Below, piece after piece: positions 4,352 to 35,346 of a DNA stretch of 64,000 nucleotides; position 1 is the stretch's first letter, and each line of letters begins with the position of its first letter. Below the pieces are notes generated by a model. The model was not told where the DNA came from. It was given only the letters and a program-made list of their open reading frames with translations, and ran no database searches. The translations under genes and the position numbers were made by a program. This DNA is from Ostreococcus lucimarinus (taxonomy: Eukaryota), in NCBI GenBank assembly GCA_000092065.1, contig CP000593.1. One strand, written 5' to 3'.

Positions 4352-4592
4352 CCGTCCGTCGATCGCGTCGCGATCTGCGCGCGCGCGCGTCGTCGCCGCC
4401 GATCGCTCGAACCTCGAGCCATCGATCGTTCGCGCAGATTTAACCGCATCGCGAGGTTCGATCGACGACGCCGTCCGTCGATCGCGCGTCGCGATCCGCG
4501 CGCGCGCGCGATCGTCGCCGCCGATCGCTCGAACCTCGAGCCATCGATCGACTCCACCGATTTCACCGCATCGCGAGGTTCGATCGACGACG
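4352..4592. repeat. Tandem duplication, 2 x ~120 bp, CGATCG-rich, in the QCR9/ANTH divergent promoter
   Basis: Copy A is 4352-4470 and copy B is 4471-4592. They share long identical blocks (ccgccgatcgctcgaacctcgagccatcgatcg, caccgcatcgcgaggttcgatcgacgacg) with a few indels. Confidence 0.85.
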
Positions 4593-4662
4593 CGCGCGCG
4601 GGTTCGCCGGCGCGCGGGCGCGCCCGCGCCGGCACAGACGCGCGCGGTCGCGTCGGCGCGCG

Positions 4663-6898: not shown

Positions 6899-8368
6899 AT
6901 GTCGCTCGCCGTCCATCTCTCATCCACCCGCACGCGCGGCGCGACGCCGTTCGCGCGCGTCAATCGCGCAAAACAGTCGCGCGTCGCATACCAGCGCGTC
7001 TCCACGCGCGCATCGCGACGCGTCGCGACGCTAGTTCGCGTTGTCCCGCTCAAAAAGTGCTGCGCTTTTTCGCAGTCATCCTCGCGCCGTTCCGCTACGC
7101 GCGCGCGCGCGACGGCCGCCGCGCCGCGCGACGCCGACGATGCGAATAAAATCATCCTCGCCCTCGGCGTGGCCATGCTGCTCGCGAGCGCGGACCGAAC
7201 GATTTTCGCCGCCGCGGCGCTGAGCCTGAAGGCGGAGCTGGGCATGTCCATGAAGGATTTGGCGCTCGCGCAGAGCGCGTTTCTGTGGGGATACGGCGTC
7301 ACGCAGCTCGCGGCGGGCGCGTCGAGCGATCGATTCGGTGGCGCGAAGGTGTTGCTCGGTGGGCTGTGCGTGTGGTCGATCGCGGTGGCGGTGACGCCGC
7401 TGAGCTCGATGACGACGGCGCCGGTGCTCGCAGTCGTGGCGGCGCGATTTTTGTTCGGCGCGGCGAGCGGATGCGCGCTACCGGCGTCCGCAGCGGCGGT
7501 TGCGGCGCACGTGCCGGCGGAGCGACGGTCGGGCGCGTTGTCAACGATATTTGCGCTGTTTAACATTGGTTCGGCGTTCGGGCTCGCGGCGGCTGGAAGT
7601 TTGATCACGCAGTTTGGGTGGCGAGCGATTTTCTACGGCTTCGGCGCGTTTGGCGCGGCGTGGGCCGTCGCCGCCTACGCCGCAATGCCGCAGAGCGTGA
7701 AAACTTTCGTCCCTAGGGTACCGAAGGTGAGCGAGTTGAAGGATGAAAACGGCGAGCAAATGACCGAGTTGTCGTCCGAAGTTGCGACGCAGCTCGTTGC
7801 GCTGTTGTGGTGTCACGTCGTCGTGAACTGGGGGTTCATGATTTTACAGTCATGGCTGCCGGTGTATCTCGCGAACGACTTGGGAATGTCCATCGCGAGC
7901 TCTGGGATCCTCGGCGCTTTACCGTGGGTATTCACCGCGTTCATGTCATTTAGCTCGGGACAGGTGGCGGATAAGTTGATTAGTCGAGGGATGGAGCGAT
8001 GGAAAGTGCGTCGATTGGCGATGAACGTCGCCACCATCGGTCCCGCCCTGGGATTATTCGCGTTGAAGTACACCACCACCGCGAGCGTCGCGTTGGCGTG
8101 CATCGTCGCCACGCTCGGTCTTCAAGCCGTCGCGGTTGCGGGGTATCACAGTTACCTTCAGGACGTCGCTCCGTCTCGCGCGGGCGCTATTCTCGGTTTC
8201 ACAAACACGGTCGGCGTCGTCGGTTCAATCGTCGCCAACATGGTGACTGGCGCGAGCGTCGAGGCGACGGGGTCGTTTCAAGCGACATTTTTGTACACCG
8301 CGGCGATGTACGCGAGCTCTTGCTTTGTTTGGAATGCATTCTTGAAGGGTGAGCAGTTGTTTCCGTAA
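6899..8368 (+). CDS. Major facilitator superfamily transporter, PHT4/ANTR (SLC17-like anion transporter) type, transit-peptide-like N-terminus
   Basis: ATG at 6899 and about 12 predicted TM helices. The motif region ADRTIFAAAALSLKAELGMSMKDLALAQSAFLWGYGVTQLAAGASSDRFGGAKVLLGGLCVWS is typical of SLC17/PHT4-type MFS proteins. Confidence 0.7.
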   Translation: MSLAVHLSSTRTRGATPFARVNRAKQSRVAYQRVSTRASRRVATLVRVVPLKKCCAFSQSSSRRSATRARATAAAPRDADDANKIILALGVAMLLASADRTIFAAAALSLKAELGMSMKDLALAQSAFLWGYGVTQLAAGASSDRFGGAKVLLGGLCVWSIAVAVTPLSSMTTAPVLAVVAARFLFGAASGCALPASAAAVAAHVPAERRSGALSTIFALFNIGSAFGLAAAGSLITQFGWRAIFYGFGAFGAAWAVAAYAAMPQSVKTFVPRVPKVSELKDENGEQMTELSSEVATQLVALLWCHVVVNWGFMILQSWLPVYLANDLGMSIASSGILGALPWVFTAFMSFSSGQVADKLISRGMERWKVRRLAMNVATIGPALGLFALKYTTTASVALACIVATLGLQAVAVAGYHSYLQDVAPSRAGAILGFTNTVGVVGSIVANMVTGASVEATGSFQATFLYTAAMYASSCFVWNAFLKGEQLFP

Positions 8369-8370
8369 AA

Positions 8371-8801
8371 AATAAGATGTAAATATAAAAAATGAATCCG
8401 TCACTCTTAGACTGCGATCGCGTTCCGATGCGTGTCGGAAATGGTAGACTGCCAGCGGAGCCATCAAAGGCTTCCTAATCGTCAACCGCACGATCCGCCC
8501 CAAAGTAAACTTTAATAAGATGTAAATATGAAAAATGAATCCGTCACTCTTAGACTGCGATCGCGTTCCGATGCGTGTCGGAAATGGTAGACTGCCAGCG
8601 GAGCCATCAAAGGCTTCCTAATCGTCAACCGCACGATCCGCCCCAAAGTAAACTTTAATAAGATGTAAATATGAAAAATGAATCCGTCACTCTTAGACTG
8701 CGATCGCGTTCCGATGCGTGTCGGAAATGGTAGACTGCCAGCGGAGCCATCAAAGGCTTCCTAATCGTCAACCGCACGATCCGCCCCAAAGTAAACTTTG
8801 A
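8371..8801. repeat. Near-perfect tandem repeat, 3 x 143 bp
   Basis: Unit starts (taagatgtaaatat...) are at 8373, 8516 and 8659. I see 1 mismatch between copies 1 and 2 and 1 at the end of copy 3. The repeat fills the gap between two convergent genes, from 3 bp after the MFS stop codon to about 40 bp before the 3' end of the next gene. Confidence 0.95.
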
Positions 8802-12436: not shown

Positions 12437-14035
12437 TCACTGGAAGTACGCGGTGAGGGAGCGGCGCGCGCGCGTCGGCGGCGCCGGGGAATCGATCGAT
12501 GTCATCGGTTTCGCTTTTGCTCGCGGGATCGGCTCGTTCTCGGTATTTTCTGCGTCGGGGCGCTCTTCGTCGATGTCTTCGACGTCGGGGTCGGCGTCGG
12601 CGTCGGCGTCGAGGACGACCGGGGACGGCGGAAGACCCGCGGCGAGGGCGAGGGCGTTCCCGGGGGTGTTGGGACGTCTCGCCGTTTGAGGCGCGAATGC
12701 GCTGAGAGGGGTGAGCACGGCGGATGATGTCGCCGCGATGGCCTCGTAACGCTCTCGCCAGTACCGAGCGTCGCTCTGGAAGAGCGCGCGCGCGCGGCGT
12801 TCGTGCTCGAGCGCCTCGATGACGTCGATGGAGGCGGCGGGTTTCGAGGGCGACGCCGAGACGGCGGCGCTGGGTGAGGACGCCACTACCGGCGATATCG
12901 GTCGCAGCTGATGCTGTTGCTGCTTTTGGGCGTCCAGTTCGCGCTGGAGCTCGTCGCGTTCGGCGGCGATGGCGTCCAAGTTTTCCTCGAGCGTCTTCAC
13001 TCGTTCCTCCGCCACGTTGACCTCTAACTCCGCCGTCGCCGCGCGTGCATCCGCCAAACGGAGCGCGGCGGCGTTTTCCGTGAAAATTTGACTCGCCTTG
13101 TCCGCGCGAGCAACGATGAGGTCGACGTTCTTTCGAGATTCCACGAGCTGGGCCTCGGCGTCGCTCAGCGCGACGCTCAGCGCGTTTTCTTTCTCGCGGC
13201 TTCGTCGCAGCTCATCCGCGCGCTCTTCGAGCGCGGCTTCGGACTCCCGCAACGTCGACGCCGTCGCCCGAATTTCTTCGTCTCGTTCGGAAAGTAAACT
13301 TCGTAACTCCTCAATCTCTCGCGCGAGCTCCGGCGACGCCCTCTCGCCTTCCTCCGCGGCTCTAAGCCGCGATTTCAAAACGTCTCGCTCCGCCGCCGCC
13401 GTCTCCGCCTTTTCGTTCGCCTCGTCCGCTTCCGCGCGCGACCTCTCGCGCGCATCCTCCAGCTCGCGCTTCGCCGCGTCAAACGTCTCTCTCGTCGCCT
13501 TCGTCTTCGCCTCCGTCTCGACCGCGTTCGCCTTCGTCTCCGCCTCGCGCGCCGCCCTCTCCCTCTCGAGCGCGTCCTCTAATTCCTTCGCCCTCTCGTT
13601 CGCCCTCTCCAGCGCCTCCGCGTCCGTCGTCGACGTCGTCGTCCTCTTCGACGCCTCCGCCCGCGCCAGCGTCCTTCGCAGCGTCGCCCGCAGTTCGTCC
13701 CGCAGCGCGTCCCTTTCCGCCCTCGTCTTCGCCTCTCCCGCCGCCGCTCGATCCCTCGCTTCCTCCATCTCCCTCGCCGTCGCTCGCGCCTCCTCCAGCG
13801 CGCGCTCGCGCGCCTCCAGCGCGCTCGTCAGTCGCCGCACGTCCTCGTCCACGCTCGCGTACGCCTTGCTCAGCCGTCCCGCCTGCGCCGCCGCCGCGCG
13901 CGCGCGCTCCAGCCTCGCCTCGCTCGTCTCCAGCGCCGCGCGCATCCCCTCCAGCTCCCCGCGCAGGCCGTCCACCGTGTCGTCGAACGCGCGCGCGTCG
14001 CCGGGCGACGACGCGCCGCTCGCCGGCGCATCCAT
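12437..14035 (-). CDS. Long coiled-coil protein, function unknown
   Basis: First ATG at 14035 (MDAPASG...); the ORF-track start is GTG. About 330 aa are E/A/R/L-rich heptad-like sequence (ALEERADELRRSREKENALSVALSDAEAQL...), followed by an acidic, proline-containing tail. Confidence 0.65.
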   Translation of the reverse strand: MDAPASGASSPGDARAFDDTVDGLRGELEGMRAALETSEARLERARAAAAQAGRLSKAYASVDEDVRRLTSALEARERALEEARATAREMEEARDRAAAGEAKTRAERDALRDELRATLRRTLARAEASKRTTTSTTDAEALERANERAKELEDALERERAAREAETKANAVETEAKTKATRETFDAAKRELEDARERSRAEADEANEKAETAAAERDVLKSRLRAAEEGERASPELAREIEELRSLLSERDEEIRATASTLRESEAALEERADELRRSREKENALSVALSDAEAQLVESRKNVDLIVARADKASQIFTENAAALRLADARAATAELEVNVAEERVKTLEENLDAIAAERDELQRELDAQKQQQHQLRPISPVVASSPSAAVSASPSKPAASIDVIEALEHERRARALFQSDARYWRERYEAIAATSSAVLTPLSAFAPQTARRPNTPGNALALAAGLPPSPVVLDADADADPDVEDIDEERPDAENTENEPIPRAKAKPMTSIDSPAPPTRARRSLTAYFQ

Positions 14036-14281
14036 CGCGCCGCGGTGTGCCGTCGATCGATCGCTCGGCGCGCGCGCGCGTCGACCGCGCGAGGTTCGCG
14101 GCGCGCGCGCGATCGACGACGCGAGGGTCGCGCGATCGCGCGTCGATCGATCGCGCGCGCGGCCGCGCGACCGCGTCGATCGATCGCGCGCGCGCCGCGT
14201 CGATCGATGCGTCGTCGATCGACGCGCGCGCGCGATCGACGACGCGGCGGTCGCGCGATGGCGCGCGCGATCGATCGCGCG

Positions 14282-14301
14282 CGGTGGTGACGTCACCACC
14301 G
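14282..14301. promoter_or_regulatory. 20-bp perfect palindrome cggtggtgacgtcaccaccg with a TGACGTCA (CRE/bZIP-type, ACGT) core
   Basis: Exact reverse-complement symmetry, checked base by base. It lies 73 bp upstream of the HCF136 ATG, in a 338-bp divergent intergenic region. Confidence 0.5.
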
Positions 14302-18559: not shown

Positions 18560-20635
18560 TCATTTCGTCAAAAATGTCATGTACGGATCCTTGCTCGCCT
18601 CGAGCACGTCCGGGCGTTGACTTTGCTTATAGGCCAAGCATCGCGAGATGAACGCCTTGCCTTCCAGCGAAATTGAGGGTCTGCTTGGGAATTCCACCTC
18701 CTTGGCGTTTCGAATCGTGCCCGCGTGCAAGATTTGCTCCTGTGACATGTCGTGGCCGAACGGTCGCTTGCCGTAAATCATTTGAAACAAGATGACACCG
18801 CACGACCACGTGTCAACCTTGCTCGAGATCTTCGGCGGCGCCGGACCGGTTTCGAAACACTCCGGGGGCAAGTACCAGTACGTTCCAGCGCCTTGCGACG
18901 TGAGCTCCATGCCACTGTCGGCGCCGAAACCGACGCTACGCTCTTCCATAATTTTACTCAAGCCGAAATCCGTAATCTTCACTCGCCCGGCTTCGTCAAA
19001 CAAAATATTTCCAGGTTTCAAGTCGTAATGGATGATGCGTTTCGGCCCCGTGCTCATGTACGCCAAGCCGTTGAAAACTTGAGCGAGAATGGCGCGCGCC
19101 TCGCGTTCGCTGATCGAGCCTTGCGCCTTCAATCGAGCGTCGAGGTCATCGCCCGTGCACAGCTCCAACACGGTGCAGAAACTATCGGAATCTACTTCGA
19201 AGACGTCGATCAAGCGCACGACGTGCGGGTGATCGAGCGATTTGTGAATGTCGCACTCTCGCGCGGCGTGACGGACATACGTGCGCTTGCGCTCTTCGCT
19301 CCACTGCGGGTTCAACTGATGCAGCTTACACGCGACTTCTCGCATTTCGACGCTGTCCCACGCCTTGTAAACTTCGCTGAAACCACCTCGTCCAAGTAGA
19401 TTCATCAACACGTAACGATCGCCGAGCACCGGGTGCTTGTTAAATCTCGAGCCGTCTTCGTCTCGCACGCGCTTGAGCGCGCGAATGTGCGCAGCTTTTT
19501 CGCGTTCAAGACTCTCACGCTCGGATTTCAGCGCTTCTTCTTCTTTTCGAATGATCGCCATGCGCGCTTTGTGTACTTCCTCGCTCAACACGTACTCGGC
19601 GTGCGCCGTCGTGTCCATCTCCGCGCTTCCCGGCGGCGGCAACTTCTTTTTGACTTGCTTGCGCTTTTCTTCGGCGAGCTTACGAGATTCCGTCAAGCGA
19701 TCCAGTCGATCATCCAGTTCATGGAACGCGCGTCCGTCTTCCCAGACTTCTTGCAACACCGATCCCACGCGCTGAACGCCGATGGTTCCCAAACGCAAGC
19801 CTTCCTCGGCGATTTGCATGCGCATTTGTTTGCGTTCCAACACCGCGAGGTTCACCGCGAGCTGATGCACGCCCCGCCGCCTCGCCTCGCTGGCTCGCTC
19901 GAATTCGCGCTTCAACTCATTATTCGACGCCCTCAACTCTTCGCAACCGCGTTCGTACTCCTCGCGCTCTTTTTCCGTCGCCGCCAACTTTTCCTCGAGC
20001 GCTCGAATCTTCGTCGCCGCCGCCTCGCGTTCGCCACCCGCCGTCCCTTTCCCGGGCGTCGTCATCGCTTCCACGAGCGGCGAGCTCGTCTTAAACCCTG
20101 ATCCAGTATTTTCAAACCGATCGAGCAGAGAGACGTTGGCCTCGGGCGTGCGCGCGCTCGCCGTCTTCCCCCCCGGATGTCGTCTCGACCGCGCCAACCC
20201 TCCGCTCGCCCCTCCCCGCTCCGGATTTTCATTCTCCAGATCGCTCGCCGTCGCCGACTCCCGCCGTCTCCGTTTCGTCGTCTTCTTCCCTCCGTTCCCG
20301 CTCGCCCCCGTGCCGACGCCCTCCGCTCGCACCGTCGACGCCTTCCCCTCCGACGCGTTCGCCCGCGCGTCCACCACGCCGTACGCGCGCGTCCCGCCTC
20401 CCTCGTCCTCGCTCGAATCGCTCGCGCTGTCCTCCATCGCGCACCGCTCCGCGCCCGCGCGCGCCCGCGCGCTTCTCCCCGTCTCCCGCGACGCGCTCGG
20501 CGGCGTCGCTCGCTCCGACGTCGTCAGCCGCCGCTCGAGCAGTTCGATCTTCGCGCGCGCCTCGCGCGACAGCTCGCGCGCGTGAAACATCTCCAGCGCC
20601 GCGCTCGCCTCCGTCGCGCGCGGCGTCGACGACAT
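18560..20635 (-). CDS. TLK: Tousled-like serine/threonine kinase (TLK)
   Basis: The kinase domain carries TLK-specific blocks: RYVLMNLLGRGGFSEVYKAWD, IIHYDLKPGNILF, ITDFGLSKIM, LTSQGAGTYWYLPPECF, KISSKVD.WS.GVI..Q...G..PFGH. Coiled-coil segments lie upstream. First ATG at 20635; the ORF-track start at 20749 is TTG. Confidence 0.88.
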   Translation of the reverse strand: MSSTPRATEASAALEMFHARELSREARAKIELLERRLTTSERATPPSASRETGRSARARAGAERCAMEDSASDSSEDEGGGTRAYGVVDARANASEGKASTVRAEGVGTGASGNGGKKTTKRRRRESATASDLENENPERGGASGGLARSRRHPGGKTASARTPEANVSLLDRFENTGSGFKTSSPLVEAMTTPGKGTAGGEREAAATKIRALEEKLAATEKEREEYERGCEELRASNNELKREFERASEARRRGVHQLAVNLAVLERKQMRMQIAEEGLRLGTIGVQRVGSVLQEVWEDGRAFHELDDRLDRLTESRKLAEEKRKQVKKKLPPPGSAEMDTTAHAEYVLSEEVHKARMAIIRKEEEALKSERESLEREKAAHIRALKRVRDEDGSRFNKHPVLGDRYVLMNLLGRGGFSEVYKAWDSVEMREVACKLHQLNPQWSEERKRTYVRHAARECDIHKSLDHPHVVRLIDVFEVDSDSFCTVLELCTGDDLDARLKAQGSISEREARAILAQVFNGLAYMSTGPKRIIHYDLKPGNILFDEAGRVKITDFGLSKIMEERSVGFGADSGMELTSQGAGTYWYLPPECFETGPAPPKISSKVDTWSCGVILFQMIYGKRPFGHDMSQEQILHAGTIRNAKEVEFPSRPSISLEGKAFISRCLAYKQSQRPDVLEASKDPYMTFLTK

Positions 20636-20760
20636 CGCGTCGAGTTCGACGAACGCGCCCGCGACGTCGCGCGCGTCTTCGTCGATCCGCGCGTCGCGAC
20701 GACGCGCGCGGGCGTCGCGCGATGGCGACGCGACGCGCGGCGATTTCAAATCCCGCGCGC

Positions 20761-20768
20761 GCGCGAAA
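20761..20768. promoter_or_regulatory. E2F-like site (TTTCGCGC on the minus strand)
   Basis: gcgcgaaa is an exact match to the canonical E2F octamer. It lies between the TLK and FKBP start codons. CG-rich octamers are frequent in this genome, so chance is a serious alternative. Confidence 0.2.
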
Positions 20769-21056
20769 ACGATCGATCGATCGATCGAGGTTTAAAACGG
20801 CGCGCGGTCGAAACGCGCGCGAGGGTCGACGCGCGCGAGAACGATCGATCGATCGCGCGGTCGATCGGTCGATCGATCGAGGTTTAAAACGGCGCGCGGT
20901 CGACGCGCGCGCGAGGGTCGACGCGCGCGAGAACGATCGATCGATCGCGCGGTCGATCGGTCGATCGATCGAGGTTTAAAACGGCGCGCGGTCGAACCGC
21001 GCGCGAGGGTCGACGCGCGCGAGAACGATCGATCGCGCGGTCGATCGGTCGCGCGG
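20766..21056. repeat. Tandem repeat, ~3 x 92 bp, CGATCG-rich with one TTTAAA island per unit, in the TLK/FKBP divergent promoter
   Basis: The ggtttaaaacggcgcgcggtcga anchors are at 20789, 20881 and 20973, giving an exact 92-bp period. Units are nearly identical and the third is partly degenerate. A (GCC)8 run follows at 21062-21086. Confidence 0.9.
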
Positions 21057-21130
21057 TCGGTCGCCGCCGCCGCCGCCGCCGCCGCGCGCGCGCGCCGACG
21101 CGCGACCGCGACGCGCGACCGACGCTCGAC

Positions 21131-22252
21131 ATGTTCTGGGGCGCGCGACTCGAGCCGGGGGTGTGGACGCCGTACGTCCCGCCGCCGGACGTCGACGTGC
21201 GGCTGCACGTGTCGCAGGCGACGGCGGCGAGCGACGCCCTCGAGGACGGCGCGCGCGTCGTGATCAAGATGCGATGCGAGACCGACGACGCGGTGCTGCG
21301 AGCGGCGGCGGGCGCGGACGATGACGACGATGACGATGATTCGTCGACGGACGATTCGTTCGAGCGGGAGGAGTACCGCGTGTGCGCGCTGATCGGTGGG
21401 CGAGTGGAGACGTGCGGGTTGGATTTGGTGCTGGACGAGTACGCGGAGTTCACGGTCGAGGGCGCGTGCGGGGCGCACTTGACGGGGTATTACATGCCGG
21501 AGTACGGCGAGGGGGATGAGTTGGACGAGGACGACGTGTACGGCGACGAGGGGGACTCGGATTCGGACGAGGAGGAGGAGATGATGACGACGGGCGACGA
21601 CGACGAGTCCGACTCGGAAGACGACGACTCCGAAGACGACGACTCCGAAGACGACGACTCCGAAGACGACGACTCCGAAGACGACGACTCCGAAGACGAC
21701 GACTCCGAGTCCGAGTCCGAGTCCGAGTCCGAGCCCGAAGGCGTCACTCGTAAGGGTGGTGTGAAGATCGTCGAGATGACCGAAGACGAGTCGGCGCGCT
21801 CGGCGAAGAAGCGCGAGGCGGAAACCAAGCCCGCGAAGACCCCCGAACCGAAGAAGCGAGCAGTGGGGGCGAAACCGGAATCTGCGTCGAAGAAACCGGA
21901 GACACCCAAGCGCGTGCACAAGAATGGCATGGAAATCATCAACACCTTTGCCACGAAGAACACCAGCGCGAAAGTCGCCGCCGGCGGCAAAAAAGTGGCG
22001 ATGAAGTACATCGGAAAGCTCCCGAGCGGTAAGATTTTCGATCAAACCAAAGGCAGCGCTACTTTTAAGTTCCGCTTGGGGGTGGGCGAAGTCATCAAGG
22101 GCTGGGACGTCGGCGTCGAGGGCATGCGCGAGGGCGACAAGCGCACGCTCATCATTCCCAGCGCCATGGGTTACGGTAAAAAAGGCATCAAGGGCGTCAT
22201 CCCCGGCGGATCCGCGCTGCACTTCGACGTCGAGCTCGTCAAGGTTTTCTAA
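21131..22252 (+). CDS. Nuclear FKBP-type peptidyl-prolyl isomerase with a nucleoplasmin-like N-domain and an acidic tract (FKBP53/Fpr3/4-like histone chaperone)
   Basis: ATG at 21131. The C-terminal FKBP domain reads KYIGKLPSGKIFDQT....FKFRLGVGEVIKGWDVGVEGMREGDKRTLIIPSAMGYGKKG....IPGGSALHFDVELVKV. The N-terminal beta-rich domain plus long D/E/S tracts is typical of nucleolar FKBPs. Confidence 0.85.
   Translation: MFWGARLEPGVWTPYVPPPDVDVRLHVSQATAASDALEDGARVVIKMRCETDDAVLRAAAGADDDDDDDDSSTDDSFEREEYRVCALIGGRVETCGLDLVLDEYAEFTVEGACGAHLTGYYMPEYGEGDELDEDDVYGDEGDSDSDEEEEMMTTGDDDESDSEDDDSEDDDSEDDDSEDDDSEDDDSEDDDSESESESESEPEGVTRKGGVKIVEMTEDESARSAKKREAETKPAKTPEPKKRAVGAKPESASKKPETPKRVHKNGMEIINTFATKNTSAKVAAGGKKVAMKYIGKLPSGKIFDQTKGSATFKFRLGVGEVIKGWDVGVEGMREGDKRTLIIPSAMGYGKKGIKGVIPGGSALHFDVELVKVF
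21611..21733 (+). repeat. In-frame coding microsatellites in the FKBP gene: 6 x 15 bp (gactccgaagacgac = DSEDD) followed by (tccgag)n
   Basis: Units start at 21611 (variant), 21626, 21641, 21656, 21671 and 21686. The SE-dipeptide hexamer run follows from about 21704. Confidence 0.9.
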
Positions 22253-22424
22253 ACCGACGCACCGAGCGCCCTCTCGCGCCGTCGTCGACCGTCCACGCGC
22301 GTTCGAAGTAATAATTTGAAGATACGACGCCGCTATTCGCAGTATTTGCTTACGCGCTTTGATTTTGATTTACACGCGCCGCGCGCGACCGCGCGCGCGC
22401 TTCGACGCTATTCTTTCGCCATCT

Positions 22425-22787
22425 CTACCCCTCTCCCATCCCATCGTCGTCCACGACGAACACGCCCCCCCCGCGCTTCCCGCGCCGCTCGCGTCGTTTC
22501 CCGTCGTCGTCGCCCGCCATCCCTCGCGCCTGCGCGCGCGCGATGACCCCGTCCAGCCTCGCGCCGCCGACGCACAGCCCCAGCAGCGCGGCGCCGACGA
22601 CGAATCCCGCGATTTCGTTCGCCGGCGGCAGCGCCGACGCGCGCGCGCGCGCCGCGCGTCGACGATTCGCATCCGTCGCGCGTCCGTCGCGCGCGGCGAC
22701 CGGCGGCGCGACGCCGCGCGACGCCGCGCGCGCGCCGGTCGCGGCGACGCGGACGCGCGGCGCGCGCGACGGACGCGGCGCCCACAT
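22425..22787 (-). CDS. Candidate small single-pass membrane protein (120 aa), unknown
   Basis: The ATG at 22787 is in frame with the tail of a long antisense ORF. The product is MWAPRPSRAPRVRVAATGARAASRGV... (transit-peptide-like), then one hydrophobic helix (EIAGFVVGAALLGLCVGGA), then a charged tail. It would split an otherwise unusually long 697-bp intergenic region into typical ~170-bp gaps. No family was recognised. Confidence 0.3.
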   Translation of the reverse strand: MWAPRPSRAPRVRVAATGARAASRGVAPPVAARDGRATDANRRRAARARASALPPANEIAGFVVGAALLGLCVGGARLDGVIARAQARGMAGDDDGKRRERRGKRGGGVFVVDDDGMGEG

Positions 22788-22949
22788 CGCCGCGGCGCGC
22801 GCGTCGTCGCGCGCGTCGCGATGTCGGGACGACGTCGACGACGGATGAAACGGCGGCGCGCGCGCGACGCGACGCGCCGCACACGCCGACGCGCGCGAAC
22901 GACGGCGACGCGAAGCGAAGGGACGGGAAATTAGGATCGAACGGCGCGC

Positions 22950-24161
22950 ATGCCGGGCTCGGACGCGGCGCGACGCGACGGCGCGGACGACGGCGCGGAC
23001 GTCGATCCTGATTTTGAAAAATCGGTCGACGGCGCGCAGGTCATGGCGGCGCTGCAGCAGCTGCACGGGAACAGCGGCCTGATCGGGGCGCTGCAGCAAA
23101 AGCTCGATGGATTGGTCGGGCTGCGATCGGGATTCCTCGAGGAGCTGCACCCGAGGGTGCGAGCGCGGGTGAAGGCGCTGGAGAAGCTGCAGGAGGCGCA
23201 CGACGGCGTCCACGAGGCGTATCTCGAAGAGAAAAAGGCGCTGGAGGCGAAATACGCGGCGCTGTACGCGCCGATGTATAAGGCGAGAAGTGAAATCGTG
23301 ACGGGGGCGAAGGAAGCGGCGGTGCCGGACGATGATGAAGAGCTGAAGGCGGAGATCGAAGCGGCGGCGAAGGACGCCGTCGAGGCGCCGAAGGGGGTGC
23401 CAGAGTTTTGGATGATTGCGCTCAAGAATAACGAGGAGCTGGCGCAGATGATCACCGAACGCGATGAGGGGGCGTTGAAGCACTTGATCGATATCACCAC
23501 GTCCGCGCTCGAGGGCGAAGACGAAGACGGCGACGAGCTGTGCGGCTTCAAGATCGACTTTCACTTTGAAGAAAATGAGTACTTTGAAGATTCCGTGTTG
23601 ACGAAGACGTATCACATGGACGACGAGGAAGACAATCTCTTGCGATACATTGAGTCGAGTGAAATCAACTGGAAATCGGGTAAGAACTTGACGGTGAAGG
23701 TTTTGCGAAAGAAGCCGAAACCAGGGGCGAAGAACAAAAAGCCCATCACGAAGACGGAACCGGCGGAAAGCTTTTTCCAATTCTTCTACCCGCCCGAAGT
23801 CCCGGACGAAGAAGAGCAACAAAACATGTCCGAAGATGACGCCGAACAGTTGCAAGACGCGATGGAGCAAGATTACGAGCTCGGCATGATGATCGCGAAC
23901 AACTTGATTCCAGACGCCGTCAACTGGTTCACCGGCGACGCATTCGCCGACGACGAAGAAGATGAATTCGACGAAGACGACGATGAAGACGAATTCGACG
24001 ACGAGGACGATGAGGACGACGAGGACGACGAGGACGACGAAGATGAAGACGAGGACGAGGAAGAAGAGTTCGTCGGCGGTAAGAAGTCTTTCGCGGCGCC
24101 GCCGGCGATGGGCGGCGCGGCGAAGGAGGGCGAACAACCGCCCGAGTGCAAGCAGCAATGA
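22950..24161 (+). CDS. NAP1: Nucleosome assembly protein 1 (NAP1) with C-terminal CaaX
   Basis: ATG at 22950. NAP family blocks are present: RVRARVKALEKLQEAHD....Y.EEKKALEAKY..LY.P.Y..R..IV.G, GVPEFW..ALKNN, FKIDFHF..NEYFE...LTKTY, WFTG.A. An acidic tail follows, ending in CKQQ, the same farnesylation box found in plant NAP1 proteins. Confidence 0.9.
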   Translation: MPGSDAARRDGADDGADVDPDFEKSVDGAQVMAALQQLHGNSGLIGALQQKLDGLVGLRSGFLEELHPRVRARVKALEKLQEAHDGVHEAYLEEKKALEAKYAALYAPMYKARSEIVTGAKEAAVPDDDEELKAEIEAAAKDAVEAPKGVPEFWMIALKNNEELAQMITERDEGALKHLIDITTSALEGEDEDGDELCGFKIDFHFEENEYFEDSVLTKTYHMDDEEDNLLRYIESSEINWKSGKNLTVKVLRKKPKPGAKNKKPITKTEPAESFFQFFYPPEVPDEEEQQNMSEDDAEQLQDAMEQDYELGMMIANNLIPDAVNWFTGDAFADDEEDEFDEDDDEDEFDDEDDEDDEDDEDDEDEDEDEEEEFVGGKKSFAAPPAMGGAAKEGEQPPECKQQ

Positions 24162-26430: not shown

Positions 26431-26773
26431 CGCCCGTCCCGCGTCTCCCGCGCGTCGCGTCCCGCGCCGCGACGCGAACCGTCGTCCCGCGCCGTCCCGC
26501 GTCTCCCGCGCGTCGCGTCGTCCGCGCCGTCGACGCGACCGCGCGCCGGCCGCCGCCGCGCGACGCGACGCGACGCGACGCGTCTCGCTCGCGCGTCGCG
26601 CACTGCGCGCGCGCTTTATTTAGCCCGACGACGACGACCGCGCGCGCGCGCGCTAACATCGCCGCCCGACGACGCGAATCGACGCTTCAAATCCCGTCCT
26701 CGATTGCGCACGATGCGCGGCCGACGCGCGACGACGCGCCGCGCGCGCGGCACTCGACGACGACGCGCGCGCG

Positions 26774-27807
26774 ATGAGCGATTTCGCCGGCGCGACGCAG
26801 TACGCGGGGAGCCACGGGTACATGCCGCAGTGCGTCGCGACGCGACGCGACGGCGCGACGACGACGCGACGCGACCGAACGCGCGCGCGATCGAGGACGA
26901 GCTGTTGATTTTGAAATTTTGAAATTCTCGGCACTCGAACGATGATCTCGACGCGCGCGCGCGAGCGGACGCGGGAGAGGACGAGGAGGGACGGGAGAGG
27001 GAAGCGCGCGCGGACGATCGTGGACGGGTGACTGACGATGGGACGCGAACGGCGTCGATGACGCGACGTAGACCGCAGGATGGATCGAGCGAAGGGAAGA
27101 CGTACGCGAACGTGAGCGCGCCGCCGACGATGAAACCGTTGACGGTTAAGATGCTGAAGCGAGCGATCGACGCGCGACAGACGCCGGATGAAACGCTCGT
27201 GGTGAATGGGGTGCCGGTTCATAACCTGACCGTCGTCGGTAAGATTGTGGGCGTCGAGAGTAAGAGCTCGTACGTTTTGTACAAGGTGGACGATTCCACC
27301 GGGGTGTGCGACGTCAAGGTGTGGAGTGACCAAGACGGCGATCAGACGGCCGAGCCGATCGAGGTTGGCGCGTACGTTCGTGTGTATGGCTCGGTGAAGA
27401 CTTTGGCCAACGAACACATGATTGCCGCGCACACTCAGCAGGCGGTGCGTAAGATTACCGACCACAACGAGGTGACGTTTCACATGTTGGAAGTCGTGTA
27501 CGCGAGCGGCCACGCCGAAAAGACCAAGGTCTCGGGCGGTGCCGCGCCGGCGAACGCTTACACCGTGCCGCAACAAGCGCCGAACGTCGCCGCGAATGGT
27601 GATTTGGGCTCCGAGGAAATCGACGTTTCAATTATGGGCGTGCTGAAGCAGTTCGCCGAGGGCGAGCAAGGGATGACCGTTGATGAAATCGCGTCGAAGC
27701 AAAACGGCAAGTTTACTCGCGATGCCATCAAAGCTGCGCTCGAAGAAATGTCGAACGGTGGTGAGGTGTTCACGACTATCGACGAAGACCACTACGCCGC
27801 TGTGTAA
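26774..27807 (+). CDS. RPA2: Replication protein A 32-kDa subunit (RPA2), 2 exons: 26774..26829 and 27072..27807
   Basis: An OB-fold (LVVNGVPVHNLTVVGKIVGVESKSSYVLYKVDDSTGVCDVKVW) and a C-terminal winged helix (GMTVDEIASK...EMSNGGEVFTTIDEDHY) are present. The ORF-track start at 27028 is GTG. Exon 1 encodes MSDFAGATQYAGSHGYMPQ, a typical RPA2 N-terminus (compare GGFMPSQ in plants), and joins in phase 2. Confidence 0.85.
26830..27071 (+). other. Predicted RPA2 intron (242 nt)
   Basis: Donor CA|GTGCGT at 26830, ACTGAC at 27031-27036, acceptor TAG ending at 27071. Only this acceptor keeps the frame; the nearby CAG at 27078 does not. Confidence 0.7.
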
Positions 27808-32991: not shown

Positions 32992-33234
32992 CGCGTCGAT
33001 CTCGGCGCGTCGCGCTCTCGCGCATGCCGTCGGCGCGCGCCCTAGGGCGCCCGCTGTTTTTGAATAGAGCACACACACGGTGCTTTATCCACTCTTTATA
33101 CGTACTTCAAACACGTATACTACATCAACCAAGCTCTATATGAAAAGGATCTCAAACCCGGATCGGAACGAGTGGCCCAGCGCGCGCGCGACCGCGGCGC
33201 GCACACCCCGACGCCGCGGCGACGCGACGACGCG

Positions 33235-35346
33235 ATGGCGAGCGCGCGAGGCGCGACGACGGCGACGCGCTCGCGCGGCGTCGCGACCGCGACGCGCGTC
33301 GCGACGCGACGACGACGCGCGACGCGGGCGAACGCGACGAACGACGCGCGCGATGGGTCGAGCAAAGCGGCGCTCGCGGCGAAGATCGCGGCGCTCAGGG
33401 CGGAGAACGAGGCGATCAAGGCGCGGATGACGACGCGAGGCGCGGAGGGAAGCGGCGCGGCGCGCGAGGGGCGCGGGGGGGGGGTAGCGACGATGCGGGG
33501 GGAGACGAAGGCGGAGGCGAGGACGACGGCGAAGGCGGAGGCGGAGGCGTTCGCGGGCGATCTTCCGAGCGCGTACGAGGGGGAATCGGAATACGGCGCG
33601 AAGGCGAAGGCGGCGGCGGCGAAGAAGGCGATGGGGGGGGAGGAGACGGAGGCGACGACGGCGACGACGGCGACGACGGATACCGCCATGTTCGCGGAGG
33701 CGTTACCGCCGCCGACGACGACGGCGCCGACGACGGCGCGACCGCCGGTGGAGAAGACGGATAATCCGATGCAAATCGTGTTCGTGTCGAGCGAGGTGGC
33801 GCCGTGGTCGAAGACTGGGGGGCTAGCGGACGTGTGCGGTTCTTTGCCGCAGGCGCTCGTCGCGCGCGGGCACCGCGTCATGGTCATCGCGCCCAAGTAT
33901 CAAAACGGCTCAAAGTCGGACGTTTTGTACGAAGGCGCGTTCGATACGTGCGTCAAGGCGAAGCTCGGATGCTTCGGTGGCGAACAAGAGGTGGGTTACT
34001 TTCATCAAATGAAGAACGGCGTCGATTACGTCTTCGTCGATCATCCGTCGTTCCACCGCAAGGGTGGACTGTACGGAGATTCGTACGGCGTGTACGGCGA
34101 CAACCAGTTCAGATTCACTTTGTTGTCCCACGCCGCGTGCGAAGCGCCGCTTCAGTTGCCATTCGCGGAGTGCGGTGGTTATTACGGACAAGACGTCGTC
34201 TTCGTCGCCAACGACTGGCACGCCGGTTTGGTACCGACTTTGGTGGCGTCCAAATACCGTCCTCACGGCGTCTACAAGGATGCGCGCACGATTTGCGCCA
34301 TTCACAACATTTTGCACCAAGGCGCGGAACCGTCGACGACGTTCCCGAACCTCGGCGTGCCGAACGAGTGGTACGGCGCGCTCGAGTACCAGTACCCCGA
34401 GCACATGCGCGCGCACGAACTCGATGAGGGTAGAGTGGTGAACATTTTGAAGGGTGCGATCGCGACGTCCGACCGCGTGTTGACCGTCTCTCAAGGGTAT
34501 GCGTACGAAATCACCACCCCAGAAGGTGGTCAGGGCATGGAAGGTTTGCTCTTGAGTCGCCAAAACCGCTTGGACGGCATCGCGAACGGCATAGACATGG
34601 ATGAGTGGAATCCGGAGGCGGATGCGGATTGTGCGGCGGCCTTTACGGTGACGGACATGTCCGGAAAGCTCGAGTGCAAACGCGCGCTGCAGAAGGAACT
34701 GGGCTTGCCGCAACGTGACGACGTGCCATTGATGGGCTTCATCGGACGTTTGGATTGGCAAAAGGGTCCGGATTTGCTCCAGAACGCGCTCCACGACATG
34801 ATGCGCGAGGACGTCCAGGTGGTGATGCTCGGCAGCGGTTTGCCCGAGCTCGAAGACTTCATGCGTTGGGCCGAGAGCACGTACCCGGACAAGTTCCGCG
34901 GTTGGGTCGGTTTCTCCGTTCCCATGGCGCACCGCATTACCGCTGGTTGCGACATTTTGCTCATGCCTTCGCGCTTCGAGCCGTGTGGCTTGAATCAACT
35001 CTACGCCATGCGTTACGGTACGTTGCCCATCGCGCACGCCACGGGCGGTTTGAAGGACACCATCACCGCGTACAACGCGTTCGGCGACGCCGACAAGGTG
35101 TTGGCGGGCACGGCCGATTACAATCAGGGCGAAGGCGTCGGCACGGGTTGGTTGTTCAAAGACATGAACGCCGATGCTCTGATGTGGGCCGTTCGTTCGG
35201 CGTGCGACGTGTATCGCTCCGAACCGAAGATGTGGCGAGCGATGCAAACGCAAGCGATGACGCAAGATTTGTCCTGGGACAACGCCGCGACAAAGTGGGA
35301 AAAGGTTTTCGAGTGGTCTAAGATCGACCCGCCGCACTGCGGTTAG
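33235..35346 (+). CDS. Starch synthase, GT5, KTGGL type (SSI/SSII/GBSS clade), plastid-targeted
   Basis: First ATG at 33235 (the ORF-track start is GTG), with an Ala/Arg/Thr-rich transit-like leader. Catalytic blocks: VFVSSEVAPWSKTGGLADVCGSLPQALVARGHRVMVIAPKY, YGDNQFRFTLL, ANDWHAGLVP, DGIANGID...WNP, GFIGRLD.QKG.DL, MPSRFEPCGLNQLYAMRYGT.P....TGGL.DT. Confidence 0.88.
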   Translation: MASARGATTATRSRGVATATRVATRRRRATRANATNDARDGSSKAALAAKIAALRAENEAIKARMTTRGAEGSGAAREGRGGGVATMRGETKAEARTTAKAEAEAFAGDLPSAYEGESEYGAKAKAAAAKKAMGGEETEATTATTATTDTAMFAEALPPPTTTAPTTARPPVEKTDNPMQIVFVSSEVAPWSKTGGLADVCGSLPQALVARGHRVMVIAPKYQNGSKSDVLYEGAFDTCVKAKLGCFGGEQEVGYFHQMKNGVDYVFVDHPSFHRKGGLYGDSYGVYGDNQFRFTLLSHAACEAPLQLPFAECGGYYGQDVVFVANDWHAGLVPTLVASKYRPHGVYKDARTICAIHNILHQGAEPSTTFPNLGVPNEWYGALEYQYPEHMRAHELDEGRVVNILKGAIATSDRVLTVSQGYAYEITTPEGGQGMEGLLLSRQNRLDGIANGIDMDEWNPEADADCAAAFTVTDMSGKLECKRALQKELGLPQRDDVPLMGFIGRLDWQKGPDLLQNALHDMMREDVQVVMLGSGLPELEDFMRWAESTYPDKFRGWVGFSVPMAHRITAGCDILLMPSRFEPCGLNQLYAMRYGTLPIAHATGGLKDTITAYNAFGDADKVLAGTADYNQGEGVGTGWLFKDMNADALMWAVRSACDVYRSEPKMWRAMQTQAMTQDLSWDNAATKWEKVFEWSKIDPPHCG

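Follow-up and report, generated by a model that had tools for sequence, protein, structure and literature searches.

We have found that the divergent intergenic region between a Tousled-like kinase (TLK) gene and a nucleoplasmin-like FKBP gene of Ostreococcus lucimarinus contains a 92-bp tandem array, and that this array is a single-locus, copy-number-polymorphic minisatellite (VNTR) within the bidirectional promoter region. It is probably young and unstable, arising by slippage or unequal exchange at (CGAT)n tracts, with the function of the region lying in the flanks of the array and the effect of the array itself on expression being small or absent.

The DNA analysed, referred to here as the window, is a 64-kb stretch, and several of the proteins that it encodes are identical to RefSeq proteins of O. 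lucimarinus CCE9901 (XP_001420928.1, XP_001420929.1 and XP_001421072.1). The locus within it is organized as follows.

18560..20635, minus strand: Tousled-like kinase (TLK) coding sequence, ATG at 20635-20633; from the open reading frame list, homologues and the Pkinase domain
20636..21130, no strand: divergent (head-to-head) intergenic region, 495 bp, 72% GC, CpG-rich
21131..22252, plus strand: nucleoplasmin-like FKBP (histone-chaperone type) coding sequence; from Pfam NPL and FKBP_C

TLK is a protein of 691 aa with a C-terminal kinase domain (Pkinase). It has 751 homologues, several of them titled tousled-like kinase, and O. tauri XP_003082583.2 matches it at 75% identity. The FKBP protein (373 aa) carries the Pfam domains NPL (9.3e-15, residues 2-122) and, at its C-terminus, FKBP_C (3.7e-27); an exact protein look-up of its sequence matched no record. 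The gene next downstream of FKBP encodes a NAP histone chaperone. Domains, homologues and genus-wide synteny all agree with the original prediction of a TLK and a nuclear-type FKBP in head-to-head arrangement. The intergenic region contains no CAT and a single ATG (20722). The TLK frame is open 5' of the ATG at 20635 up to a TTG at 20749 (window 20636-20749) and the ATG of the sister-species TLK aligns to ~20707, and both the O. lucimarinus start codon and the exact intergenic length are uncertain.

Three genes related to histone chaperones, those for TLK, the nucleoplasmin-type FKBP and NAP1, are thus adjacent (18560-24161) in an order conserved across the genus, and replication protein A2 (RPA2; 27058-27807) lies two genes beyond this group. 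The TLK/FKBP/NAP1/RPA2 stretch may represent a co-regulated chromatin or S-phase neighbourhood. The acidic tract of FKBP (21610-21738) is itself repetitive, with a 15-bp unit that codes for repeats of SEDDD present 6.6 times at 98% identity and, after it, a 6-bp unit present 6.5 times. Length differences of a few bases in alignments to conspecific contigs suggest that this tract is possibly polymorphic too.

Tandem Repeats Finder (TRF) placed the array at 20770-21051 with a period of 92, 3.1 copies, 95% matches and a score of 508, and a gap-free repeat search returned three copies at spacings of 92 and 92 with identities of 100, 97 and 89%. The array is a head-to-tail tandem of a unit within the size range of minisatellites (10-100 bp). 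The array and its neighbouring elements are listed below.

20743..20752, no strand: AT island GATTTCAAAT with TTCAAA (fits the CHR consensus TTYRAA); conserved TLK-proximal element
20761..20768, minus strand: E2F-consensus octamer TTTCGCGC (TTTSSCGC); motif match
20770..20788, no strand: left (CGAT)4.8 microsatellite tract; from TRF, kept in every allele
20789..20880, no strand: 92-bp unit 1, variant GTCGAAACGCG; from repeat searches and allele comparison
20881..20972, no strand: 92-bp unit 2, variant GTCGACGCGCG; from repeat searches and allele comparison
20973..21061, no strand: unit 3, variant GTCGAACCGCG; from repeat search and allele comparison
21062..21085, plus strand: (CGC)8 / (GCC)7 trinucleotide run; from TRF, same length in 11/11 alleles
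21089..21103, plus strand: FKBP-proximal GC block CGCGCGCCGACGCGC; conserved in the two closest lineages (MAFFT)

The three predicted anchors were exact and the tandem repeat is real: GGTTTAAAACGG occurs in the 64-kb window at 20789, 20881 and 20973 only (0.29 occurrences expected), and GCGAGGGTCGACGCG is found without mismatch at 20819, 20911 and 21003. The units had been described as most of the 495-bp region, and the array covers 282 of these base pairs (57%). TTTAAAA is present in each unit as stated, but it is not the sole AT island of the region, since GATTTCAAAT at 20743-20752 is a second. The E2F-consensus octamer was borne out on the minus strand at 20761-20768, just upstream of unit 1. 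The run predicted after the last unit is also there, although what had been read as (GCC)8 scored as (CGC)8.0, which is (GCC)7 in the other register. Unit 3 is identical in sequence to the copy in one-copy alleles and passes at its 3' end into unique GGTCGCGCGGTCGGTC. An RNA gene at the array was considered and rejected: Rfam at gathering score and a tRNA scan both returned nothing in the whole window, and the best sub-threshold Rfam match over 20500-21300, obtained with an E-value threshold, was mir-341 at 35.9 bits (gathering score 90), on a hairpin of CGATCG type.

An exact 23-mer of the unit, GGTTTAAAACGGCGCGCGGTCGA, was scanned against the JGI metagenome collection. It matched nine contigs, all nine of which proved to be the TLK-FKBP locus, with no second locus, and placement between the TLK and FKBP start codons was seen in every contig long enough. 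The flanks of these contigs are 98.5-99.95% identical to the window, so the contigs were assigned to the same species. With one ENA contig, reached via a 99%-identical TLK protein, and the reference, the set comprised 11 alleles. Ten were counted as spanning the whole intergenic region; the eleventh, L015, starts inside a preceding copy. Copy numbers were as follows, the metagenome contigs being consensus assemblies whose counts are not allele frequencies.

One copy (n=5): L001, L011, L012, L013 and L014
Two copies (n=3): L007, L008 and L009, the last on a contig that ends after the GCC run
Three copies (n=2): L010 and the window (reference)

The copies also differ internally. Their cores carry GTCGAAACGCG, GTCGACGCGCG, GTCGAACCGCG, GTCGATCGGTCG or GGGCGAACCGCG, and comparison of alleles gives a register of 92 or 93 bp at the junctions between copies. 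In copy 3 of L010, TTTCAAA replaces TTTAAAA, the sole natural variant of this island seen. Copy number, core variants and junction register together define at least five allele structures. Through TLK, the alleles L011-L013 match the reference at 99.9% identity, yet they have one copy where the reference has three, and copy number must therefore shift fast.

The head-to-head TLK-FKBP arrangement is kept in seven other Ostreococcus-like lineages, with TLK identities of 71-79%, and the NAP, tetraspanin-like, DAGAT and HCF136 neighbours are likewise kept in those seven. The 92-bp unit is absent from the TLK-FKBP intergenic regions of all of them. In each of them the middle of the region holds something different. 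Contigs resembling O. tauri have an unrelated 30-bp unit present 3.2 times (L016 2693-2789 and L017 1661-1756), and L020 has an unrelated 41-bp unit present 3.5 times at 1208-1349; both minisatellites lie on the FKBP-proximal side. L018 and L019, two contigs of another Ostreococcus lineage, have (CGAT)n arrays of unequal length, an (ATCG)n-type tract having 8 units in L018 (2649-2680) and 11 in L019 (2637-2680), from which we conclude that CGAT microsatellites are unstable in that species also. In the two lineages closest to O. lucimarinus, L004 and L002, telomere-like blocks, AAACCCTAA / TTAGGGTTT, form an inverted pair in the middle of the region. The pair lies at ~2885-2950 in L004, where it is doubled, and at ~5728-5945 in L002, where its arms are ~190 bp of AT-richer DNA apart; it looks like either two telo-boxes forming a pair or a small element with inverted repeats that carries an insert in one lineage and lacks it in the other.

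A base rate for such repeats is given by the window itself, in which 4-5 of the 11 divergent intergenic regions have duplications of at least 80 bp, as follows.

4352-4593: divergent-region duplication
14051-14283: divergent-region duplication
20770-21051: divergent-region duplication, the present array
33193-33351: divergent-region duplication

The occurrence of minisatellites at the TLK-FKBP intergenic region in three of the eight lineages is about this base rate. Promoter centres in the genus turn over via independent tandem duplications.

All of the blocks conserved between species sit outside the array. When a one-copy allele of O. lucimarinus was compared with L004 and L002 by MAFFT, two zones alone aligned, a TLK-proximal zone around GGCGTCGCGAT and an FKBP-proximal zone consisting of the GCC run and CGCGCGCCGACGCGC. 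On the TLK side, each of the six intergenic regions compared has TTCAAA/TTTGAA, which in five lies at a distance of 38-128 bp from the TLK ATG, and the motif was also found in L005 and L021. TTTSSCGC occurs exactly once per intergenic region in the window, in L006 (as GCGCGAAA) and in L016 (as the canonical GCGGGAAA), on the same strand in all three and 11-16 bp from TTCAAA/TTTGAA. The octamer is absent in L002, L004, L018 and L020 and is reduced to TTCGCGC in L021. TTTSSCGC is not enriched in the window (20 occurrences; 28.1 +/- 4.6 in shuffles), and it is positional conservation, in three of the eight lineages, that makes the octamer plausibly a candidate E2F site. The cyclin B promoter of O. 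tauri is reported to contain an E2F motif (PMC2873908), and on that ground E2F is plausibly in use in the genus. On the FKBP side, no other intergenic GCC/GGC run in the window reaches 4 units besides the one at 21062-21085, and shorter GCC/GGC runs stand at the equivalent site in L002, L004, L016 and L020. Because they are conserved between species, the flanking blocks (TTCAAA with the E2F-like GCGCGAAA, and the GCC run with CGCGCGCCGACGCGC) would be the likeliest core promoter or 5'UTR elements.

The sequence of the array suggests how it may have originated. The unit is bordered by (CGAT)n tracts on both sides in every allele, with a left bracket of (CGAT)4CG and a right bracket of (CGAT)2-3CG followed by GGTCGATCGG, and comparison of alleles places the inter-unit junctions inside these tracts, in slightly different registers. 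CGATCG is self-complementary. Modelled as single-stranded DNA, the unit with its tracts forms a hairpin of -45.7 kcal/mol, as against -35.5 +/- 2.4 for shuffles (z -4.3). The ancestral state would have been one ~92-bp segment containing the TTTAAAA island, GC palindromes and the GCGAGGGTCGACGCG block, and, in the simplest scenario, slipped-strand mispairing or unequal exchange between the (CGAT)n tracts would then have duplicated the segment, leaving alleles with one, two and three copies side by side in nature. If the promoters are positioned as we infer, the array would chiefly alter how far apart the promoter halves lie (from ~310 to 495 bp) and in what dose a few low-information sites are present, and its effect on expression would probably be small or absent, making copy number nearly neutral.

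A regulatory role of the units is the strongest of the other explanations. The array could be a functional homotypic cluster whose copy number tunes TLK and FKBP expression or cell-cycle timing, as in yeast promoter repeats. Within the TLK-FKBP promoter, TTTAAA occurs in the units only, and it can be read as a weak TATA-like sequence as well as a match to the LIN54 CHR consensus TTYRAA, while TTTAAAA is not a canonical TATA. The CHR consensus is TTYRAA and in the animal composite the CDE lies four bp upstream (PMC4974476); on the TLK-sense (minus) strand each unit reads CGCGCG-CCGT-TTTAAA, in the layout of the animal CDE-N4-CHR. The natural variant TTTCAAA in copy 3 of L010 still fits TTYRAA, the neighbouring genes TLK, FKBP-NPL, NAP1 and RPA2 are chromatin or S-phase genes, and repeat number in yeast promoters changes expression in the work of Vinces (2009), as cited in PMC3887541. 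Set against this, however, the CDE consensus SGCGCS fills 6.2% of positions in the divergent promoters of the window and shows no excess at a 4-nt spacing over other spacings, so the CDE/CHR layout of the unit is at chance level. Several divergent promoters of the window are without any AT island, and such an island is therefore no general requirement. The copy number runs from one to three between haplotypes with 99.9% identical flanks, and the unit is missing from all other Ostreococcus species examined. We therefore regard a tuning cluster as unlikely. Its more specific form, in which the units are dose-dependent modules of a CHR-like TTYRAA beside a CDE-like CGCGCG, with one to three copies setting the level or the cell-cycle or diel phase of TLK, FKBP-nucleoplasmin and NAP1, is less likely again; if true, it would provide a yeast-type evolvable promoter in a marine picoeukaryote, readable straight from metagenomes. 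A modest dose or spacing effect on expression is possible by analogy with yeast promoter repeats, for which such effects are documented (Vinces 2009, as cited in PMC3887541).

The original prediction saw in the array a hint of a family of related promoter repeats, and the unit might accordingly be a dispersed promoter-repeat family or mobile element common to the HCF136 (14051-14283) and 4352-4593 duplications. The shared blocks on which this was based are present, with GCGAGGGTCG and GCGAGGTTCG at 14121 and 14089 in the HCF136 promoter duplication and at 4451 and 4573 in the 4352-4592 duplication (a 122-bp duplication). GCGAGGKTCG occurs eight times in the window against 1.29 expected, with seven of the eight in the three duplicated promoters and all on the plus strand, a concentration that favours a family; it reduces to ~5 independent occurrences once copies made by duplication are discounted, and the motif was picked after seeing the data. 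CGATCG is likewise denser in divergent intergenic regions (10.1 per kb) than in coding sequence (1.56 per kb), a 6.5-fold difference, but it is dense in only four of the 11 divergent regions and absent from five, and a sister species lacks the 10-mer in its orthologous HCF136 promoter. When the 92-bp unit was aligned locally with the 122-, 123-, 143- and 81-bp units and compared with dinucleotide shuffles, no homology was found to the 122-, 143- and 81-bp units (z=1.5 for the 122-bp unit). The 123-bp unit gave z ~3.7, equal in both orientations, which points to palindromic CGATCG/CGCGCG low complexity and not to descent. Aligning the promoter repeat units, as had been proposed, thus revealed no homology beyond low complexity, and the family did not hold up: common to all three repeats are only CGATCG/CGCGCG low complexity and one 10-mer. 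The 23-mer of the unit was found nowhere else in the window, was confined to the TLK-FKBP locus in 9/9 metagenome contigs and had no matches in viral contigs. The unit showed neither terminal inverted repeats nor target-site duplications, the inverted repeats reported there being the palindromic (CGAT)n tracts. Absence of the units from other promoters and variable copy number, both of which had been named as counting against the idea, are what we observed. A dispersed family or mobile element is thus very improbable, and the three promoter repeats are, to judge from their sequences, local duplications that arose independently in CpG-rich promoters of similar composition. The HCF136 promoter duplication, which is older, did not vary in length in two conspecific contigs.

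That the polymorphism is an assembly artefact, the reference triplication being false or the one-copy forms collapsed, is scarcely credible even though tandem repeats often cause breaks or collapse in short-read assemblers and the L015 and L005 contigs end at or near the intergenic region, because separate assemblies give three copies (L010) and two copies (L007-L009) with copy-specific variants and five independent contigs run across the locus with a single copy between flanks that are unique on either side. The multi-copy forms are genuine, since their copies carry distinct internal variants and junction registers. The one-copy alleles are very probably genuine as well, as collapse would require switching between copies within ~36 shared nt, which we infer to correspond to a k-mer of ~36 or less. 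The final k-mer sizes of current assemblers far exceed 36.

Several further features were noted in the window. A 143-bp unit is present 3.0 times at 99% identity at 8371-8799, between two convergent genes; it begins immediately past the stop codon that ends the gene at 6899-8368, in an AT-richer intergenic region of 46% GC, and is younger and cleaner than the 92-bp promoter repeat. Base composition in the window differs sharply with gene orientation: the GC content is 61-81% in divergent intergenic regions (67% or more in all except one), which often have no AT island, and 33-58% in convergent (3'-end) ones, most of them below 55%. In the divergent region upstream of RPA2, TTCAAATCCCG at 26686-26696 equals the 11-mer at 20745-20755 in the TLK promoter; with up to one mismatch, it occurs seven times in the window against 1.2 expected, spread over coding, 3' and promoter regions. 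Two tandem copies of TTTTGAAAT lie upstream of RPA2 at 26905-26925. At 14283-14300, ~75 bp upstream of the HCF136/YCF48 start codon, there is a perfect palindrome, GGTGGTGACGTCACCACC, with the core TGACGTCA (bZIP/CRE-type), and a sister species likewise has TGACGTC in its HCF136 promoter (L002, ~12480-12490).

Literature searches on Ostreococcus tousled, on Ostreococcus minisatellites and on CGATCG in Micromonas/Ostreococcus found nothing specific to this locus. Promoter minisatellites are a familiar class and the present one changes no concept; its uses are modest. As a VNTR marker visible in metagenomes, with at least five allele structures, it can serve population studies of O. lucimarinus, and its one-, two- and three-unit alleles form a natural series for testing spacing and site dose in the very short bidirectional promoters of Mamiellales. 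Ostreococcus is transformable. The comparison across species indicates which parts are likelier to function: towards TLK the pair formed by TTCAAA and the E2F-like site, and towards FKBP the GCC run together with the GC block.

Tandem repeats are common in yeast and plant promoters and 5'UTRs (PMC3887541); they occur in ~25% of S. cerevisiae promoters according to Vinces et al. (2009), as cited in PMC3887541, and plants have an excess of them in 5'UTRs and the first 200 nt upstream (PMC3887541). The array resembles these promoter and 5'UTR VNTRs in its head-to-tail, non-coding unit of 10-100 bp within a promoter region, in a copy number that is polymorphic between near-identical haplotypes, and in its rapid turnover between species. 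Unlike the AT-rich promoter repeats of yeast, the 92-bp unit is GC- and CpG-rich and is bracketed by self-complementary (CGAT)n, and it differs from known promoter VNTRs in lying in a head-to-head promoter that two genes share, within an algal genome that is very compact. The conserved TLK-proximal pair resembles, as a sequence match, a lone E2F site or the composite of E2F/CDE and CHR bound by DREAM/MuvB (PMC4974476), with TTTCGCGC fitting TTTSSCGC near TTTGAA on the TLK-sense strand and the pairing recurring in two other Ostreococcus species; it departs from the canonical 4-bp CDE-CHR in that TTTGAA lies at a distance of 3 bp from CGCGCG and of 10 bp from the octamer, and the pair lies outside the repeat. 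A likeness to the telo-box (AAACCCTAA) exists where L002, L004 and L006 carry TAGGGTTT/AAACCCTA and O. lucimarinus has GAGGTTTAAAACGG. Derivation of the O. lucimarinus AT island from a telo-box is speculative and, in contrast to plant telo-box promoters, the TLK-FKBP intergenic region of O. lucimarinus is itself without a telo-box.
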